Part shown: positions 33,746 through 64,000 of the stretch, one piece after another
Layout: every line of letters starts with the position of its first letter
How positions within the stretch are numbered: the stretch's first letter is position 1
From: Victivallales bacterium
GTDB taxonomy: Bacteria > Verrucomicrobiota > Lentisphaeria > Victivallales > GWF2-50-93
Assembly: GCA_049297395.1 (NCBI GenBank)
Contig: JBAQUG010000455.1
Coordinates: forward strand, 16 to 64,015
Direction of reading: 5' to 3'
Length of the DNA: 64,000 nt
The notes under the pieces: generated by a model
Database searches by the model: none
What the model saw: only the letters and a program-made list of their open reading frames with translations
Told to the model about the DNA's origin: nothing
Made by a program: the position numbers and the translations under genes

Positions 33746-33801
33746 GGTTCCCTTGAGGAATATGTTTAGAGGTTCACTAAAAATAACAAAAGGAGTTGAA
33801 G

Positions 33802-34446
33802 ATGAAGATCTCAAAACTGATGGCCCTGATCCTATGCGTGGGAATGTTTGGCTCGATGAGCCTGATGGCTCAGGAGGACAAAGACAAGGATGACGGAGGT
33901 GCTAATCAGGTGAAAACCATGGAACAGGCCTGGAAGGCGGCGCTTGAACAGCTTGAAGACGACCAGGACAGCGCCAAGAAGGTTGTTGAGTTCTACAAGG
34001 CGAACTTTGCTGAAAAGATAAAATTCCTGGAGAAGGAGCTGAAGGATGATTCAACGGAGGTTGTTTCGGAACTCACCAGCGACCTTTTAGAATGCAATCT
34101 AATCCTGACGACGAAGGATGACAGCCCTGAGAAGTTTAAGGAAGAGCTTGAATATATGAAGCTTGAGGTGAATACGGATTTGCTCGGAGAGAAGATTCAG
34201 GATCTCAAGGAGAAGGAAGCCGACAAGAATAAGGCTGAGATCGAGAAGAATGAGAAGGAACTCAAGAGCGAGTTGGGAAAGCTCTTCGACATGAAGCTCC
34301 TGAGGGAGAAGGAGGAGCTAAAGGATCTTGAAAAGGATATTGAAGAACTGAAACAGCATATAAGGCAGAGGGAGGAGAACCGCGACAAGATTGTCGATAA
34401 GAAACTCGAGGAACTTACGGGAGTTGACGAGGATCTCGAGTTTTAA
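33802..34446 (+). CDS. secreted acidic coiled-coil protein, function unknown
   Basis: Signal peptide MKISKLMALILCVGMFGSMSLMAQE and a K/E-rich heptad-like body. AAAGGAG lies 6 nt before ATG 33802. Confidence 0.5.
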   Translation: MKISKLMALILCVGMFGSMSLMAQEDKDKDDGGANQVKTMEQAWKAALEQLEDDQDSAKKVVEFYKANFAEKIKFLEKELKDDSTEVVSELTSDLLECNLILTTKDDSPEKFKEELEYMKLEVNTDLLGEKIQDLKEKEADKNKAEIEKNEKELKSELGKLFDMKLLREKEELKDLEKDIEELKQHIRQREENRDKIVDKKLEELTGVDEDLEF

Positions 34447-34478: not shown

Positions 34479-34512
34479 GGGGCATGACATAAAAATCATG
34501 CCCCGTTTTTTT
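34479..34512 (+). terminator. Rho-independent terminator
   Basis: ggggcatga-cataaaaa-tcatgcccc followed by gttttttt. Confidence 0.85.
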
Positions 34513-34624: not shown

Positions 34625-34909
34625 ATGCAACTTATGGCCAACCACAAGACCAAGCTTGAACTCGCCTGGATAGGCAAGGAGAACCGGCCGAAGCTGGAGC
34701 CGAGAATCCTCATAGAGGAACCGGAAAAATCCTATCATGACGATTACAGCCTTGAGATCAAGAACCTCCCGATGAAAGCTCCTGAGCCGGAGATAGCCAA
34801 AGAAGACAGGGGTGTGAAAGGTGCAAGGACGAAAGAGGAAAGAAGAAAACTGGCGCCGGATCAATCTTCGTTATTCGACTGGTCAGAAGGAAAGGAAGGG
34901 AAACCGTGA
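34625..34909 (+). pseudogene. 94-aa stub carrying only the N-terminal signature of a type III-like Mod DNA methyltransferase
   Basis: KTKLELAWIGKENRPKLEPRILIEEPEKSYH is recognised as the conserved Mod N-terminus. No SAM-binding or (D/N)PPY motif follows. The stop overlaps the next gene's GTG (GTGA at 34906-09). Confidence 0.55.
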
Positions 34910-36165
34910 AGCGTAAAACCTCTATTGCACGTCCGGCGGCGTCTGTTTACGAGCGCATACGGAATATCCTGGATTCCGCCAGGAGCAACGTTGCCCGTTC
35001 GGTGAACACAACCCAGGTCGTCGCGAACTGGCTGATTGGGCGCGAGATCGTGGAGGAGGAACAGAATGGAAGTCGCCGTGCAGAATATGGTGAGAGATTG
35101 CTCCGAAATCTCGTAGCCCAGCTCCAGGAGGATTATGGTGCTGGGTATAGCCTTGCAAATTTAAAATTTTTCCGCAAGTTCTATTTGGAATATCCTCACT
35201 TATGCGATGGAACAAAAGGCTACGCAGTGCGTAGCCTTTTGGCTGACTCCATGTCGAAGGATGCCGATGGAAAAGGCTACGCACTGCGTAGCCAATCTGG
35301 AAGTTCTTCAAAAACAATTAGTTGCGAGAAAAATCACGCACTGCGTGATTTTCCTATTCCGAGTGCTTTTCCCGCTGCAGTTGGCTACGCAGCGAGTAGC
35401 CAATCATGGTTGCCGGGCCAGATTCATCCTAATCTTTCCTGGACCCATTACCGTACACTGCTGCGTGTTGACAAGGCTGAGATCAGAGCTTTTTACGAGA
35501 TAGAGGCGATCAAGAGCAGTTGGTCGGCGAGGGAACTGGAACGGCAGATCAACAGTCCTCTTTACGAGCGGCTGGCATTGAGCAAGGACAAGAAAGGCCT
35601 GATGCGGCTGGCGACAAAGGGGCATGAGGTTCAGAAACCGGCTGACGTATTCAAGGATCCGGTGGTCATAGAGTTCCTGGGGATGCCGGAGTCATCCAAG
35701 CTGGTCGAGACCGATCTGGAAACCGCCCTCATCAGCAACCTGCAGACTTTTCTGCTGGAGCTTGGCAAGGGATTTGCCTTTGTGTCCCGTCAGGAACGCC
35801 TTACCTTGGATGGCGACCACTTTTATATTGACCTGGTTTTCTACCACACCATCTTGAAGTGTTATGTAATCATTGACCTCAAGGCGGGAAAGCTGACGCA
35901 TCAGGATCTTGGACAGCTTCAGCTGTATGTGAACTACTACGACCGTGAACGCCGGACCAAGGGGGACGGGCCTACGCTCGGATTGATCCTGTGTGCGGAC
36001 AAGAATGATGCCGTGGTGCGGTACACACTGGGAGAAGACCAGCAGAAAACAATATTTGCCAGCCGCTACAAGCTCCATCTTCCCAGTGAGACCGAGCTAA
36101 AGAACGAACTGCGGCGCGAAGTTAGAGTGCTGTCAGCGCCAATGAAGAAGGGAGATGCGAAATGA
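34906..36165 (+). CDS. DUF1016 (YhcG-like) PD-(D/E)xK nuclease domain protein
   Basis: N-terminal VVANWLIGREIVEEEQNGSRRAEYGERLL...LKFFRKFYLEYP. Then LSWTHYRTLLRV, WSARELERQI, and a C-terminal nuclease core FYIDLVFYH...VIIDLKAGK. Confidence 0.85.
   Translation: MKRKTSIARPAASVYERIRNILDSARSNVARSVNTTQVVANWLIGREIVEEEQNGSRRAEYGERLLRNLVAQLQEDYGAGYSLANLKFFRKFYLEYPHLCDGTKGYAVRSLLADSMSKDADGKGYALRSQSGSSSKTISCEKNHALRDFPIPSAFPAAVGYAASSQSWLPGQIHPNLSWTHYRTLLRVDKAEIRAFYEIEAIKSSWSARELERQINSPLYERLALSKDKKGLMRLATKGHEVQKPADVFKDPVVIEFLGMPESSKLVETDLETALISNLQTFLLELGKGFAFVSRQERLTLDGDHFYIDLVFYHTILKCYVIIDLKAGKLTHQDLGQLQLYVNYYDRERRTKGDGPTLGLILCADKNDAVVRYTLGEDQQKTIFASRYKLHLPSETELKNELRREVRVLSAPMKKGDAK
35214..35401 (+). 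repeat. four in-frame DNA palindromes at 57/57/51-nt spacing inside the DUF1016 linker
   Basis: Palindromes: aaaaggctacgc-agt-gcgtagcctttt (35214-40); ggctacgc-act-gcgtagcc (35275-93); aaaatcacgc-act-gcgtgatttt (35330-52); ggctacgc-agc-gagtagcc (35383-401). They translate to KGYAVRS, KGYALRS, KNHALRD and VGYAASS. Confidence 0.9.
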
Positions 36166-38702
36166 ATCCTGTTGTCAACGTCATCGCCAACCGGCTGAGC
36201 CTCCGTCCTCCGCAACGCAATTCGTTGGAGATTCTTTCACGGCTCTGTGACATCATTCCTCTCGAAAAAGATGCGGACGTGGCGCGATCCCTGGAAACAA
36301 TCCGGGCGGAATTTCCGATGGTAACGGATTTCGAGCGGGATTTTCCGTCACTTTGCTTCGCCCTGGCGACAGGTGTGGGCAAGACGCGGCTAATGGGGGC
36401 GTTCATCTCCTATCTTTTCAAGGCCGAAGGCATGCGGCACTTCTTCGTGCTTGCGCCGAACCTGACCATATACAATATCTCTAAAATTACGAGCACGGAA
36501 ACACCCAAGGGGGCAGTGAAGACCAATGTTCCCCGTTTCCGCCGCCTGCAGGAATACCTTGGGCAGAGCTACTTTGAATACCTGTCGAAGCTTGACGATC
36601 TTGTCCTGCTCATGGATGAATCCCACCGTTACCGGGCATCGGCAGGCATGAGGGCTATCAGCGAGTTGAAACCTATCATAGGACTTGAGCTTACCGCTAC
36701 ACCGCAAATTGAGACCGGTGGACGCAACATTCCTTTCAATAACGTCATATACAGTTATCCGCTATCAAGCGCCATGGAGGATGGGTTCGTCAAGGAGCCC
36801 GCCGTAGCAACGCGTGAGAACTTCAACGTGAAGAGCTACGATGAAGACAGTTTGGAAAGGCTGAAGCTGGAGGACGGGGTTAGAATCCACGAGAACACAA
36901 AGGTCGAACTGGAAATATATGCACGCGAAAACGGCAAGTCTCTAGTAAAACCATTCATGTTGGTCATTGCCAGGGATACAGGCCACGCCAATGAGCTTGT
37001 GAAGATAATAGAAGATCTGGCGTTTTTTGAGGGTAGGTACAAGGGAAAGGTCATCCAAGTCCATTCGAAACAGACCGGCGAGGAGCGTGACGAGACTGTT
37101 GAACAGCTCATCAATGTAGAGAAATCAGACAACCCTACGGAAATAGTCATCCATGTGAACATGCTCAAAGAAGGTTGGGATGTAACGAATCTCTATACCA
37201 TCGTTCCTCTCCGGGCGGCTAACTCGCAGACGCTGGTCGAGCAATCCATCGGACGCGGTCTCCGGCTTCCTTACGGTAAACGCACGGGAGTGGGTGCGGT
37301 GGATCGGCTGACCATAGTATCCCATGACAAGTTCCAGGAGATTGTTGACTACGCCAACAGTCCTGACTCGATCATCCGAGGCGGAATGAAAGTGATTTAT
37401 GTCAGCGATGAGAAATCCAAGGTTGTTGTAGCTCAACCCCGGATAATGGAGCATATTACGGCTTCTGGTGAGTATAAGGCCAGCGGTGCCAAGCAGCAGC
37501 CCGTGCTGTTCAAGAGTCCGAAGGAGCAGGAAGCTGCGAGGGCTACGCTGGATGTCATACACAGGGAATTTGAAAGGCTGCCAAGTTCTGCGGATCTCGC
37601 AAAACCTGAAATTAGGAAGCAGATTGTCGAAAAAGTGAAAGAGAGTATTACTCCGGCACAGCAGGAAATCGAAGGCGTAGCTGAGAAAATTGATGTGGAA
37701 GGAATCGTATCAAAGACTATTAAACTTCATAATGAACTTTCTATTGATATCCCCCGTATCAGCATTCAGCCTAAAGGCGAAGTGTCACGCGGCTTCAGTG
37801 AGTTCAAACTCGATCTGTCGGGAGTGCGGCTTCAGCCTGTGGACAACGAAATTCTGATACAGGAGCTTCATCGCCGCGAACAGCATCGTCTATTGAGCGG
37901 AAGTGGTGTTGATACTGAAGAGCATCCTGAGGATTATCTCGTGAACGGACTCATTGACTTCAATGACATCTGCTATGACAATCATGCAAAACTGCTCTAC
38001 AAGCTTTCAAGTCAGACAGTGGCGCACTTGAGATCCTATCTGAAGAGTGAGGAGGAGGTTCTGAACGTGCTGCAGTATCACCAAAAGATGCTGGTAGATT
38101 TGATACATGCACAGATGCAGGAACACTATGAGGAGAAGGCCACCGGCTACGGGATTCATGTGAGCAAGGGCTTTACATCTCTACGACCCAGCAATTACTC
38201 GGCCCCTGCCGGGGAAGTTGAGCGGGACTTCCGAGCCCCGGTTTCCGATAGGCAGGAGATTCGGAAAATGTTATTTGTCGGATTCAGCAAATGCCTATAT
38301 CCGCTTCAGAAGTTCGATTCAGATACCGAAAGGAGATTTACGGTTATCTTGGAAAACGACAAGGAAGTCCTCAAGTGGTTCAAACCGCCCAAGGGAGTGT
38401 TCCAAATCCAATATGACAAGCGCAGCGGGGAGATGTACGAACCTGATTTTGTGCTTGAAACTAAAAAGGCCAAGTTCCTTTGTGAGATAAAAGCTGCAAA
38501 CGAGATGAATGACGGGCAAGTGCTGGCAAAGGCCAAGGCAGCGGCGGAATGGTGTACTCACGCCACAGCTCATGAGAAGGAGCATAAAGGCAAGCCGTGG
38601 ACTTGCTTGCTTATCCCACACGATGCGATTTCCGACAACAAGACGCTTCAAGGGCTGGCAGCGACATATACCCATGCTTTTGCACGCGGTGGCAAAAAGT
38701 GA
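36162..38702 (+). CDS. type III restriction enzyme Res subunit (SF2 helicase plus C-terminal PD-ExK nuclease)
   Basis: Walker A ALATGVGKTRLMG, DEAH-variant LLMDESHRY, LELTATP, QSIGRGLRLPYG, and a C-terminal EPDFVLE...FLCEIKA. The start overlaps the DUF1016 stop (ATGA). Confidence 0.85.
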   Translation: MNPVVNVIANRLSLRPPQRNSLEILSRLCDIIPLEKDADVARSLETIRAEFPMVTDFERDFPSLCFALATGVGKTRLMGAFISYLFKAEGMRHFFVLAPNLTIYNISKITSTETPKGAVKTNVPRFRRLQEYLGQSYFEYLSKLDDLVLLMDESHRYRASAGMRAISELKPIIGLELTATPQIETGGRNIPFNNVIYSYPLSSAMEDGFVKEPAVATRENFNVKSYDEDSLERLKLEDGVRIHENTKVELEIYARENGKSLVKPFMLVIARDTGHANELVKIIEDLAFFEGRYKGKVIQVHSKQTGEERDETVEQLINVEKSDNPTEIVIHVNMLKEGWDVTNLYTIVPLRAANSQTLVEQSIGRGLRLPYGKRTGVGAVDRLTIVSHDKFQEIVDYANSPDSIIRGGMKVIYVSDEKSKVVVAQPRIMEHITASGEYKASGAKQQPVLFKSPKEQEAARATLDVIHREFERLPSSADLAKPEIRKQIVEKVKESITPAQQEIEGVAEKIDVEGIVSKTIKLHNELSIDIPRISIQPKGEVSRGFSEFKLDLSGVRLQPVDNEILIQELHRREQHRLLSGSGVDTEEHPEDYLVNGLIDFNDICYDNHAKLLYKLSSQTVAHLRSYLKSEEEVLNVLQYHQKMLVDLIHAQMQEHYEEKATGYGIHVSKGFTSLRPSNYSAPAGEVERDFRAPVSDRQEIRKMLFVGFSKCLYPLQKFDSDTERRFTVILENDKEVLKWFKPPKGVFQIQYDKRSGEMYEPDFVLETKKAKFLCEIKAANEMNDGQVLAKAKAAAEWCTHATAHEKEHKGKPWTCLLIPHDAISDNKTLQGLAATYTHAFARGGKK

Positions 38703-38787: not shown

Positions 38788-40878
38788 ATGCCAGATAAAT
38801 TATCCAAATTGGAGCTGCTTGCTCCTGCGGGGGGACCGAAGGCGCTGTTTGCGGCAGTTGAAGCCGGCGCTGATGCGGTCTATTTCGGCCTAAAGGAGCT
38901 GAATGCACGCCGTGGAGCTGAAAATTTCACGCAGGATAACCTTGCTGAAAATGTAGGTTTCGTGCATGGAAGAGGGGCGAAGGCCTATCTTGCACTTAAC
39001 ATAGATGTTTCACAGCGGGAACTTGGCGAGGCTGCAAGACAGCTTGAGCTTGCGAGGCAGTGCAAGGTAGACGCGGTTCTTGTCAAGGATCCGGCGATTT
39101 TGAAAATGATGCCATACTTCCCCGGGATCGATTTCCATTTCAGTACCCAGGCCGGGATATCATCTTCCGCAGGGGTGAGGGCGGCCAGGGAACTGGGGAT
39201 AAAGCGCGTTGTTCTTGCCAGGGAGCTTTCAATTGATGAGATCAGGGCTGCTTCTTCTGTTGAAGGGGTTGAGACAGAGGTCTTCGTCCAGGGAGCGCTT
39301 TGTTTCTGCATGTCCGGATATTGCCTGCTGTCAAGCTGGCTTGGCGGGCGGAGCGGGAACCGTGGCTTATGCGCCAGCCCCTGCAGGTTCGAATGGAAGA
39401 TCGGGAGCAGTGGAGGCGGACGTTTCCTTTCGATGCACGACCTGTCCCTCCTGGAGAGGCTTGAGGATTTGCAGCAGGCTGGAGCAAGGGCGCTTAAAAT
39501 AGAAGGCAGGCTGAAAAGCCCGGAATGGATCTCGAAAGCCGTGTCGGTCTATCGCAGGGGCATTGACAATGGTGTTGATGATCAGCTTAGGAAAGAGGTG
39601 CTCGAGCTAGGCGAGTATACCGGCAGGAGCCTGACGGATGGCTACTTGAAAGGCTGCAGGAGAAAACTGACTGGTGATTCCGGAAGAATATCAACAGTTC
39701 CGGAGGAGCTTGAAGATGCAGTCAGCCAGCCTGAAAGTGAACCGGCTGCAGAGCCGGATGGGACATATGGCATTGATATTAAAATTGAAAACGGCAGGCT
39801 GGCATGCGTGTTCAGCCATGGCGGTTCCTCCAGGAAATATCTTTACCCTGTCAGCTTGGTGCGTTCACCCGAAAGGGCTGTGGCGCTAGGGGCGGTCGGA
39901 GAGATGATCTCGGAAGTTCCGGTCCAGGGGCTTTTGCTTGGAAACTTCTCAGTTGAAGACGGAGATATGCAAATGCCGCGGAACATCCTGAAGAAGCTCA
40001 GAGAGGATCTGTCATCGTTCCTGCGTCTCGCCCGGAAGGGGGGCGATGAGAAAATCAAGGTTAGGATTCCTGTTGATGTCCAGTCGATCCTGGACGGCTG
40101 CAGGAATGAAATTCCCGATAATCCAAACAAGTTGAAGCTCGGCGGAGGAATCGACGTTGTCCGAATTCCGGGATACGGAGATGCGTGCGAATTCCGCAGG
40201 AAGTGCGCCGGCTACAGGATCATCATCGACGGCGCCGGATCGCACGAGATACTCAATTCTGATTTTGAATGGGGACGCAGCCTTCCAGTTATCGCACTGC
40301 CGCCAGTGTTTTTCGAAGATGACATTGTACGGGTCAGAGCCCTTCTGGACGTCTGCAAGGAGAGGGGGCTTGCCGTCGAAGTTAACAGCTGGGATGGATG
40401 GTTCCTTGCAAGGGAGGCCGGAGCAAGGCTGGAGGCAGGGCCGGGAATGGCGGTCTTGAATTCCATTGCCGCCGGATTCCTTAATGAGAAAGGGTGCGGA
40501 TCTGCCGTGGTTTCACTTGAGGCGGACAAGCGCCAGATGGAAGATATTGCATCGAGGAGTTTTGTTCCATTGCGCATATACAGTTACGGACGTCCAGTTC
40601 TTATGGTAAGCCGTGCCGAGCTCCCACCTGAATTCACTGGCAAAGTTTTCCAGGACAGGAGGAACTGTTCAATGAGGCTCGGTCTTGAATGGAATCTGAG
40701 TGTCTTCCGGCCGACAGAGCCCTTTGACCTCCGGCGCGAGGTCAAAGGGGGGCTCGTGGCCGCGGGCTTCGCCGCGGATCTTTCAGGTTCCGGTGATTTC
40801 TCCAGTGAACTTAAAAGAGCCGGTTCTGCCTGCGGGTCCGCTGTTAAAACATTTAATTATCTGAGGAAGCTGAGATGA
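38788..40878 (+). CDS. peptidase U32 family protein (long form)
   Basis: LELLAPAGGPKALFAAVEAGADAVYFG, ARELSIDEI, and the Cys cluster GNRGLCASPCR typical of U32 proteins. Confidence 0.85.
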   Translation: MPDKLSKLELLAPAGGPKALFAAVEAGADAVYFGLKELNARRGAENFTQDNLAENVGFVHGRGAKAYLALNIDVSQRELGEAARQLELARQCKVDAVLVKDPAILKMMPYFPGIDFHFSTQAGISSSAGVRAARELGIKRVVLARELSIDEIRAASSVEGVETEVFVQGALCFCMSGYCLLSSWLGGRSGNRGLCASPCRFEWKIGSSGGGRFLSMHDLSLLERLEDLQQAGARALKIEGRLKSPEWISKAVSVYRRGIDNGVDDQLRKEVLELGEYTGRSLTDGYLKGCRRKLTGDSGRISTVPEELEDAVSQPESEPAAEPDGTYGIDIKIENGRLACVFSHGGSSRKYLYPVSLVRSPERAVALGAVGEMISEVPVQGLLLGNFSVEDGDMQMPRNILKKLREDLSSFLRLARKGGDEKIKVRIPVDVQSILDGCRNEIPDNPNKLKLGGGIDVVRIPGYGDACEFRRKCAGYRIIIDGAGSHEILNSDFEWGRSLPVIALPPVFFEDDIVRVRALLDVCKERGLAVEVNSWDGWFLAREAGARLEAGPGMAVLNSIAAGFLNEKGCGSAVVSLEADKRQMEDIASRSFVPLRIYSYGRPVLMVSRAELPPEFTGKVFQDRRNCSMRLGLEWNLSVFRPTEPFDLRREVKGGLVAAGFAADLSGSGDFSSELKRAGSACGSAVKTFNYLRKLR

Positions 40879-62985: not shown

Positions 62986-63144
62986 TTACTCTACAGCCTT
63001 GGTCTTTGGAATTCCAAGGACCTTGTCCCCGGGTTTCCAGCGTCCGCCCTTGGTCAGGATGTCAATGCGCTCGAATCTCTTGAGCACATTCCTCTTTGCT
63101 CTTATCTTACCTGTGCTTTTCAGGCTTGAATGTCTTCCGCCCAT
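62986..63144 (-). CDS. 52-aa small basic protein (PVC-type small basic protein, TIGR04137-like)
   Basis: Not in the ORF track because it is under 60 aa. My translation is MGGRHSSLKSTGKIRAKRNVLKRFERIDILTKGGRWKPGDKVLGIPKTKAVE. GAGGAG lies upstream of the ATG and a terminator lies downstream. Confidence 0.7.
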   Translation of the reverse strand: MGGRHSSLKSTGKIRAKRNVLKRFERIDILTKGGRWKPGDKVLGIPKTKAVE

Positions 63145-63309
63145 GTTCTTACTCCTCAAGTTAACGTGATTATCCGTGAAGCCTCATAATATTGAACGAA
63201 ATTCCATTTAGTCAAATATAAATTTGTAAAAATCCTCTTATACGGCTTGTCTATCCCTGCATAGAGCTTATTTTCTGCTTTTGCTCCGAACAGTTTCTCA
63301 GGGGGTGTC

Positions 63310-64000
63310 TTGATAAAAATTCATGCAATCCTATTGGTTTTATGTTTTTCAGCCCTGTCTGCTTCTGCGGACGATCTGAAAAAAATAACCATTCTCCAGA
63401 CTTCCGACATCCATTCCCGGACCGGAACCGATTCACTTCCAGGCATCCGCCAGCTTGCCTCTGCCTTGAACTATGCCAGAAACAATGCCGGCGGATCTGG
63501 AAAATGCCTCCTTGTCGACTGCGGTGACATCCTCCAGGGCTCCTTTGCAGGAAGTGCTTCCCGCGGTGCCGTCGGCCTCGGCTTCCTCAATGAGCTCAAA
63601 TACGATGTCTGGATACCGGGAAACCATGACTTTGATTTCGGGACGGCCCGGTTCCTTGATATAATGAAACAGTGTTCGCCGGCCATCGTCGCCGCCAACC
63701 TCTATTTTGATGGCAAAAGACTAGCCTGCCCATGGAAAGTAATTGAAAAGAACGGTGTCAGGATTGCCATAATAGGCATGACTTCTCCTTCCCTTGACAA
63801 GTGGCACTGGGGCAAAAACTCTTCCGGCATTTATTCCAGCCTCTTCAGCGGCCCGCTCGATGAGATAATCCCCAAGGTCATGGAATCGAAATGCGATATT
63901 ATCATCCTCGCAGTACACCAGGGCTTATTCCAGACCGACAAAAGCGAATTGAATCTGAACAGGATTGCGGAGATGTATCCGCAGATCGATCTCGTACTCG
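63310..64000 (+). CDS. secreted metallophosphoesterase / 5'-nucleotidase family protein, 3' end beyond the window
   Basis: My translation from TTG 63310: a signal-like ILLVLCFSALSASA, then ITILQTSDIHS, DCGDILQGS, GNHDFDFG and IILAVHQG, the calcineurin-like phosphoesterase motifs. Absent from the track because no stop lies within the window. Confidence 0.8.
   Translation, partial: MIKIHAILLVLCFSALSASADDLKKITILQTSDIHSRTGTDSLPGIRQLASALNYARNNAGGSGKCLLVDCGDILQGSFAGSASRGAVGLGFLNELKYDVWIPGNHDFDFGTARFLDIMKQCSPAIVAANLYFDGKRLACPWKVIEKNGVRIAIIGMTSPSLDKWHWGKNSSGIYSSLFSGPLDEIIPKVMESKCDIIILAVHQGLFQTDKSELNLNRIAEMYPQIDLVL

Follow-up and report, generated by a model that had tools for sequence, protein, structure and literature searches.

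A probable relic operon of type III restriction-modification, decayed by deletion around a DUF1016 guest gene, in a Victivallales metagenome-assembled genome

We examined a stretch of 64,000 nucleotides (nt), hereafter the window, from the metagenome-assembled genome (MAG) of a Victivallales bacterium, and within it an island of three plus-strand open reading frames (ORFs) that resembles a type III restriction-modification (R-M) locus without its methylase. The first ORF, which we call mini-Mod, encodes 94 amino acids (aa; NCBI protein WAX69_20850) related to the type III methyltransferase subunit (Mod), the second encodes a DUF1016 protein and the third a type III restriction subunit (Res). 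All three are chained by overlapping stop and start codons (GTGA at 34906-34909 and ATGA at 36162-36165). An earlier note on this DNA, made from the sequence alone, had reported this chain of ORFs at the same positions, and it had placed a terminator upstream of the island; both observations were reproduced here. The features of the island, which is very probably what is left of a type III R-M operon, are as follows.

34479-34512, + strand: intrinsic-terminator-like element, a hairpin (34479-34504; 9-bp stem with 6 GC pairs) and then a T-run, GTTTTTTTGA
34625-34909, + strand: mini-Mod ORF, 94 aa (ORF list, PADLOC profile and comparison with homologues)
34634-34738, + strand: Mod N-terminal segment (…KLELAWIGKENRPKLEPRILIEEPEKSYH), with 74-86% identity to the first ~29-38 residues of full-length Mods
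34730-34745, + strand: mod deletion junction, TAT CAT / GAC GAT TAC, the slash marking the join here and below (DNA comparison with intact relatives)
34739-34906, + strand: Mod C-terminal tail (DDYSLEIKNLP…SLFDWSEGKEGKP), with 55-56% identity to the last ~55 residues of the Mods of two related loci (L005 and L006)
34906-36165, + strand: DUF1016/YhcG-family PD-(D/E)xK nuclease gene, 419 aa, GTG start (Pfam, PADLOC and orthologue alignment)
35213-35401, + strand: variable linker between the two halves of the DUF1016 N-domain, with four short palindromes
36162-38702, + strand: type III Res gene of 846 aa, homologues having 883-904 aa (Pfam, PADLOC and alignments)
36465-36479, + strand: res deletion junction, ATA TAC / AAT ATC TCT (NLTIY / NISKI, aa 104/105; alignment with homologues)

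Comparison with intact relatives showed that the first ORF is an internal-deletion allele of mod. The comparison set comprised 80 loci encoding Res relatives in reference genomes, searched with the three window proteins. The earlier note had called this ORF an N-terminal stub of Mod, and its N-terminus did match the PADLOC type III methyltransferase profile PDLC03636 (residues 7-44 against positions 3-40 of 575, E = 1.6e-10), the only profile to recognise it, with no significant match in Pfam or NCBIfam; residues 39-94, however, are the C-terminal tail of Mod. Each intact mod of L005, L006 and several other loci was matched twice, by residues ~4-41 at the start of the gene, ~1.7 kb upstream of res, and by residues ~38-93 over its last ~55 codons, directly before res. 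The second piece corresponds to aa ~514-566 of full-length Mods, and in the window the two pieces abut, such that the Mod N-terminus (aa 1-38 of the ORF) is joined in frame to the tail (aa 39-94), which still bears the original mod stop codon overlapping the next gene. Full-length Mods have 543-570 aa, counted from the start methionine, and read …EKSYHA…(motif X FGDNLLALKAL, DPPY, target-recognition domain, motif I)…CEWGHDDYSLEIKNLP…LFD…, and the protein reading across the window junction is …EKSYH / DDYSLEIKNLP…SLFDWSEGKEGKP.

In the DNA of intact relatives, the N side of the break reads TAT CAT GCx and the C side xxA CAT GAC GAT TAC (in L005, TCGTATCATGCA and GGACATGACGATTAC, respectively), that is, a CATG microhomology at both break points, between which ~480 codons (~1.45 kb) were lost in frame. 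The Mod body was absent from all frames of the whole window when eight full-length Mods were used as tblastn queries, which recovered the two abutting pieces only. The ORFs of the island contain no (D/N/S)PP(Y/F/W) motif and Pfam N6_N4_Mtase was not detected, in agreement with the earlier note, which had found no methyltransferase motif there. The window thus lacks what a Mod subunit requires, namely the motif I that binds S-adenosylmethionine, the catalytic motif IV (DPPY) and the target-recognition domain. A weak, recurrent tblastn match at 63505-63576 was considered as a second mod and dismissed as chance, since it falls inside a metallophosphoesterase-like ORF (GNHDFDFG). That ORF lies on the plus strand within 63000-64000, runs off the end of the window and carries the metallophosphoesterase-like motifs DCGDILQG and GNHDFDFG.

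Because homologues begin MANHKTKLEL…, mini-Mod probably starts at the ATG at 34634, with a product of 91 aa, rather than at the ATG at 34625 (MQLMANHK…). The first ~35 residues of the Mod family (KLELTWIGKENRPKLEPRILIEDPEKSYH) show 75-90% identity across phyla, compared with ~50% over the remaining protein, and this N-terminal peptide is the part that survives in nearly every remnant.

The third ORF was assigned to type III Res by PADLOC (PDLC03648, E = 5e-200) and by the Pfam domains ResIII and Helicase_C. Its sequence contains helicase motifs I, Ia, II, III, V and VI, as well as the EPDF...CEIK motif of a PD-(D/E)xK endonuclease domain at the C-terminus (EPDF at aa 760 and CEIK at aa 774, aligned with the homologues; Pfam gave weak, sub-threshold TnsA-like and RE_endonuc matches over residues 710-799). 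The description of Res as intact in the earlier note is nevertheless wrong, as one block is absent by comparison with 12 homologues of 883-904 aa (NLTIY / NKLIADFTPNTPKYVFQGI…ITGDNYE…IHINIF / NISKI). Relative to L005, L006, L007 and L082, 56-61 codons are gone in frame between motifs Ia and II, at nt ~36473/36474, with a short microhomology (TAYAAYA / TTYAAYA) at the junction. All 80 homologous loci possess the block, six of them with extra insertions at this place and none with a deletion, and in an alignment of 44 database fragments 23 of its residues were at least 90% conserved, two of them being invariant.

We placed the block in an AlphaFold model of the N-terminal 329 residues of an intact Res homologue (predicted template modelling score 0.73; predicted local distance difference test score, pLDDT, 57-78 over the block). 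It accounts for most of helix 101-111, helix 124-128, strand 132-134 and strand 157-162. These elements belong to RecA-like domain 1 (RecA1), with the strand of motif Ia (93-98) before them and that of motif II (199-204) after them. The best match of the model in the PDB was EcoP15I Res (4zcf_C), followed by SNF2 ATPase lobes. Given the missing block, the window Res does not have a complete superfamily 2 (SF2) ATPase core (RecA1 + RecA2), and according to the model the loss of a core beta-strand together with its flanking helices very probably leaves the Res ATPase and translocase dead.

As the source is a MAG, one or both deletions might be an artefact of assembly or binning, or a minority allele, in an organism that has an intact mod-DUF1016-res operon. 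The Res and DUF1016 products were not on record in exact form in the protein collection, searches with junction-centred Res proteins of 220 and 66 aa found no near-identical allele (one protein, P0230, has a smaller gap in the same loop), and an exact-match scan of JGI metagenome contigs with a 33-mer spanning the res junction returned no match, all of which would fit such an explanation. Against it, two Logan assemblies, each from its own run (SRR28062683 and SRR28062512), contain exactly this 94-aa product, with the same DUF1016 start and the same chromosomal surroundings, and because these assemblies are independent the mod deletion is not an assembly artefact. Microhomologies of 4-7 nt are also too short for assembly collapse, and both junctions are clean and in frame. 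We therefore consider an artefact very unlikely.

The second ORF, by comparison with the first and third, is complete. It consists of DUF1016_N and YhcG_C (PF06250, 192.6 bits against a cut-off of 32.5, positions 2-156 of 157; PF17761, 123.2 against 32.8) and corresponds to the PADLOC candidate PDC-S02 (model PDLC04807, E = 4e-138). It aligned end to end with its orthologues in L083, L031 and L059 (72, 68 and 57% identity, respectively), and its catalytic core (DGDHFYIDLVFYH…IDLK.GKL) is identical in all three, the length of the linker alone varying. DUF1016 genes have been found to co-occur with restriction methyltransferases and ResIII (PMC3424549) and, like RhuM, to be enriched next to and embedded in R-M loci, including positions between the core genes of type I systems (PMC9881135). 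One PDC-S02 representative tested in E. coli B gave no protection against T7, T5 or T4 (bioRxiv 10.1101/2024.09.26.614923). On sequence grounds we regard the window DUF1016 as a candidate defence or accessory nuclease.

The linker itself contains repeated inverted sequences. Palindromes 1-3 are perfect or nearly so, with arms of 13-14 nt (for example CAAAAGGCTACGCA-G-TGCGTAGCCTTTTG), and are spaced by exactly 57 nt (19 codons), each encoding a GYA(V/L)RS-like peptide. One perfect palindrome with arms of 12-14 nt occurs in the same linker in every DUF1016 orthologue examined (L083, 7155-7181; L031, 7092-7118; L059, 7166-7194); that of L083 equals the first palindrome of the window over 27 nt, and those of L031 and L059 differ in sequence. 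The palindromes are far beyond chance and could represent a hairpin (in DNA or RNA), a site bound by protein or the insertion of a small element. In a search of the region against Rfam, they caused the only match, a sub-threshold one to a microRNA hairpin.

The position of DUF1016 in the island is also that seen in intact operons. In L031 (Planctomycetota MAG), L059 (Gammaproteobacteria MAG) and L083 (PVC group MAG), the gene lies between a full-length mod and a full-length res. All three show an ATGA or GTGA overlap of its stop codon with the start of res, its own start is overlapped by the mod stop (ATGA) in L031 and L083, and mod and res overlap directly in L005 and L006, which lack DUF1016. 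Judged from these sequences, stop/start overlaps are the ancestral, default state of the Mod-Res family, and they were left untouched by decay because both deletions are internal to genes. The coupling had been held in the earlier note to argue against neutral decay, an argument that falls with its occurrence in intact triads and plain mod-res pairs alike. The intact triads share with the window their gene order, the overlapping codons and a DUF1016 that is 57-72% identical with the same catalytic core, and differ in having a Mod of 543-570 aa and a Res of 893-896 aa that is only ~52-55% identical to that of the window. The earlier note had also offered a decaying R-M locus as one of its readings, with a DUF1016 gene replacing the mod body. 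While decay is supported, replacement was rejected: the start of DUF1016 coincides exactly with the original mod stop, as it does in the intact triads, and the mod deletion lies wholly within mod. Loss of the mod body was an event separate from the presence of DUF1016, which occupies the usual guest slot.

Guests move between backbones, and guest and backbone have separate histories, because the closest relatives of the parts of the island lie in different loci: the closest Res/Mod backbone is that of L005 and L006 (Res 71% identical), in which DUF1016 is lacking, and the closest DUF1016 (72%) is that of L083, in a backbone whose Res is 52% identical. The mod-res junction of the family is a hot spot for such genes, and its other occupants in relatives include a Zeta toxin, DUF4258, MNT/HepT, RhuM, DUF6883, Abi_2, ORF6N, Fic and PDDEXK_3. 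Such guests were seen in L009, L013, L015, L017, L018, L025, L032, L033, L050, L051, L053, L055, L078, L080, L081 and L082, where they are often fitted with precise stop/start overlaps; the DUF4258 guest comes with an antitoxin. Comparison of these loci suggests cassette exchange via the conserved 3' end of mod and 5' end of res.

Two further arrangements were observed among the relatives. A pair formed by an AAA_15/AAA_21 ATPase and DUF4276 stands directly upstream of mod in L002 (6266-8001), L092 (37-1797), L093 (22-1916) and L091 (6294-6999), on unrelated contigs and with the DUF4276 partner unannotated in L093; it is absent from the window and may be a further linked defence module. In L030 (4502/6328), L039 (4484/6259) and L072 (4417/6007), two Mod N-terminal matches ~1.6-1.8 kb apart lie upstream of res, which suggests two tandem mod genes before a single res.

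Loss of the mod body has also occurred in other genomes. The 94-aa ORF used as a query retrieved 108 short proteins with a Mod N-terminus. In most of these the N-terminus runs into out-of-frame sequence or stops at a contig end; several, namely P0002, P0042, P0043, P0044, P0077, P0084 and P0102, join both Mod ends in frame, as the window does. The decayed loci that bear on the window are these.

L087 (Marinimicrobia): mini-Mod of 79 aa, Fic, then Res residues ~797-901 only
L089: mini-Mod of 83 aa, RhuM, then Res residues ~4-32 only
L092: mini-Mod of 94 aa overlapping a 23S_rRNA_IVP-family gene
L093: multiply deleted Mod of 150 aa overlapping the next gene
L001 (Nitrospira): Mod stub with an ATGA overlap to a DUF4258/MqsA pair (toxin-antitoxin); res absent
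L002: frameshifted mod pieces, then a DUF1016_N fragment
L004: a single deletion fusing mod (to ~aa 367) to the 3' end of res
L091: disruption by an insertion sequence element

The guest differs at each mini-Mod locus elsewhere (Fic, RhuM, the 23S_rRNA_IVP-family gene, the toxin-antitoxin pair). No other locus among those examined combines a mini-Mod with a full-length Res; elsewhere the mini-Mod goes with a Res remnant or with loss of res. The window fits an early stage of this decay series, with the mod body gone, a first deletion in res and the guest intact.

These comparisons also decide on the reading to which the earlier note leaned, that of a functional, undescribed, methylase-less nuclease-helicase module in which mini-Mod and DUF1016 replace Mod as the partner of Res in recognition or regulation. 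Such a module would account for three ORFs that are all open and chained, for a Res that keeps its helicase and nuclease motifs without an excess of point substitutions, and for the retention in mini-Mod of both terminal Mod segments, the N-terminal one being unusually conserved across phyla. However, the window Res lacks a RecA1 core segment that all 80 homologous loci possess, and the coupling is ancestral and not specially preserved. The triad expected to recur under this proposal was not encountered either: where DUF1016 stands between mod and res it accompanies a full-length Mod, as in the intact triads, and the mini-Mods that do recur have unrelated guests and a remnant of res. We consider a functional module of this kind to be highly improbable.

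A more modest role for mini-Mod is compatible with decay. The ORF could be selected as a leader through which the mod promoter, its start site and the overlapping stop/start codons stay in place and the guest goes on being translated by coupling, as in-frame fusions of the Mod N- and C-termini abut or overlap intact guests in five to six loci of unrelated genomes with different guests (the window with DUF1016, L087 with Fic, L089 with RhuM, L092 with the 23S_rRNA_IVP-family gene, L093, and probably L001 with DUF4258/MqsA). In L002, a frameshifted mod remnant stands before a fragmentary guest. On the other side, the sample is small and was partly hand-picked after the sequences had been seen, tails out of frame are more numerous than fusions in frame among all the short proteins with a Mod N-terminus (some 40 against 8, counted by eye, many of the former on short contigs), and an in-frame outcome has a prior of 1 in 3. 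Selection as a leader ORF is thus a tentative addition, somewhat short of an even chance. It is unlikely that mini-Mod, with the ~40 N-terminal residues conserved across phyla and the C-terminal tail of Mod, is kept as a functional unit in its own right, as a coupling leader or as a docking or regulatory peptide for the guest, or, in the strongest form, that mini-Mod, DUF1016 and the shortened Res act together. If this were true, selection would lead repeatedly to mini-Mod plus guest as an end state, with defence genes carried as guests outlasting the host R-M operon and putting it to new use.

Taken together, the island is in all likelihood the relic of a horizontally spread type III R-M operon (mod - guest DUF1016 - res) in early deletional decay. 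Illegitimate recombination or slippage between the two CATG sequences removed ~480 mod codons, including all methyltransferase motifs and the target-recognition domain, and left the in-frame ORF of 94 codons; a second, independent in-frame deletion took the 56-61 conserved res codons between motifs Ia and II. Microhomology is found at both junctions. Type III Res depends on Mod for DNA recognition, and intact Res is inactive without Mod (EcoP1I/EcoP15I). Since type III Res cannot act without Mod, there should be neither restriction nor modification at the locus, and for the same reason loss of Mod is not suicidal and either gene may go first. The sequence predicts that both site-specific N6-methyladenine (m6A) methylation and Mod-dependent, ATP-dependent cleavage are absent. 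DUF1016 is probably the sole functional gene left; the old mod promoter would still drive its transcription, and coupling to the mini-Mod ORF its translation.

Several observations weigh against decay. Both deletions are in frame, which has a chance of ~1 in 9 and is not significant but notable. The loss of Res function is deduced from conservation and from a moderate-confidence model (pLDDT 57-78), and the res deletion lacks confirmation in any independent assembly. All helicase and nuclease motifs of Res are kept, and outside the deletion it is changed at one of 192 near-invariant positions, which equals the family median and on which account diffuse pseudogenisation of Res was rejected. The low substitution and the kept motifs imply that the res deletion is recent or that the remainder of the protein is still constrained.

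The terminator-like hairpin (34479-34512) closes the upstream gene (33796-34446) and forms the 5' boundary of the relic operon. On the 5' flank lies a gene for a coiled-coil protein, which has thrS-infC-rpmI-rplT and a sigma factor gene upstream of it, and on the 3' flank a large ORF (38788-40878). A foreign base composition of the island was considered and rejected (G+C of 0.508, against 0.501 for the window). A scan for sigma-70 promoters upstream of mini-Mod found no promoter-like site, a result that is uninformative for this phylum.

Among known systems, type III R-M (EcoP15I/EcoP1I; PDLC03648 + PDLC03636) is the nearest to the window locus. Shared features are mod upstream of res, overlapping codons, the SF2 motifs and a C-terminal PD-(D/E)xK domain; in addition, the model of an intact homologue best matches EcoP15I Res, and the ends of mini-Mod match the ends of the partner Mods. 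The order of mod and res, with res coupled to the gene upstream, is retained in the window as a relic. The window differs in that the catalytic and target-recognition body of Mod is deleted and Res is without 56-61 residues of RecA1. As read from its sequence, the locus descends from type III R-M and no longer falls within the definition of such a system. The apparent methylase-less type III-like system is accordingly to be seen as a known system in early decay and does not belong among new defence architectures. Annotators would still call Res here (PADLOC E = 5e-200) despite the missing core segment, and the presence of motifs overstates how intact the protein is.

With embedded guests of R-M operons (DUF1016, RhuM, Abi, Fic, toxin-antitoxin pairs), the window locus shares the slot between the host genes, and it differs in that the host R-M genes are decaying around an intact guest. 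The decayed relatives L087, L089, L092 and L001 share with it a mini-Mod that is in frame (or probably so) upstream of an intact guest, as well as the loss of R-M function. They differ in having lost most or all of res and in carrying other guests, whereas res is nearly full length in the window, which places the latter at an earlier stage. This series of decay stages suggests that guests embedded in R-M operons survive their hosts, and an in-frame mini-Mod ORF may persist with them and keep the signals for their expression.

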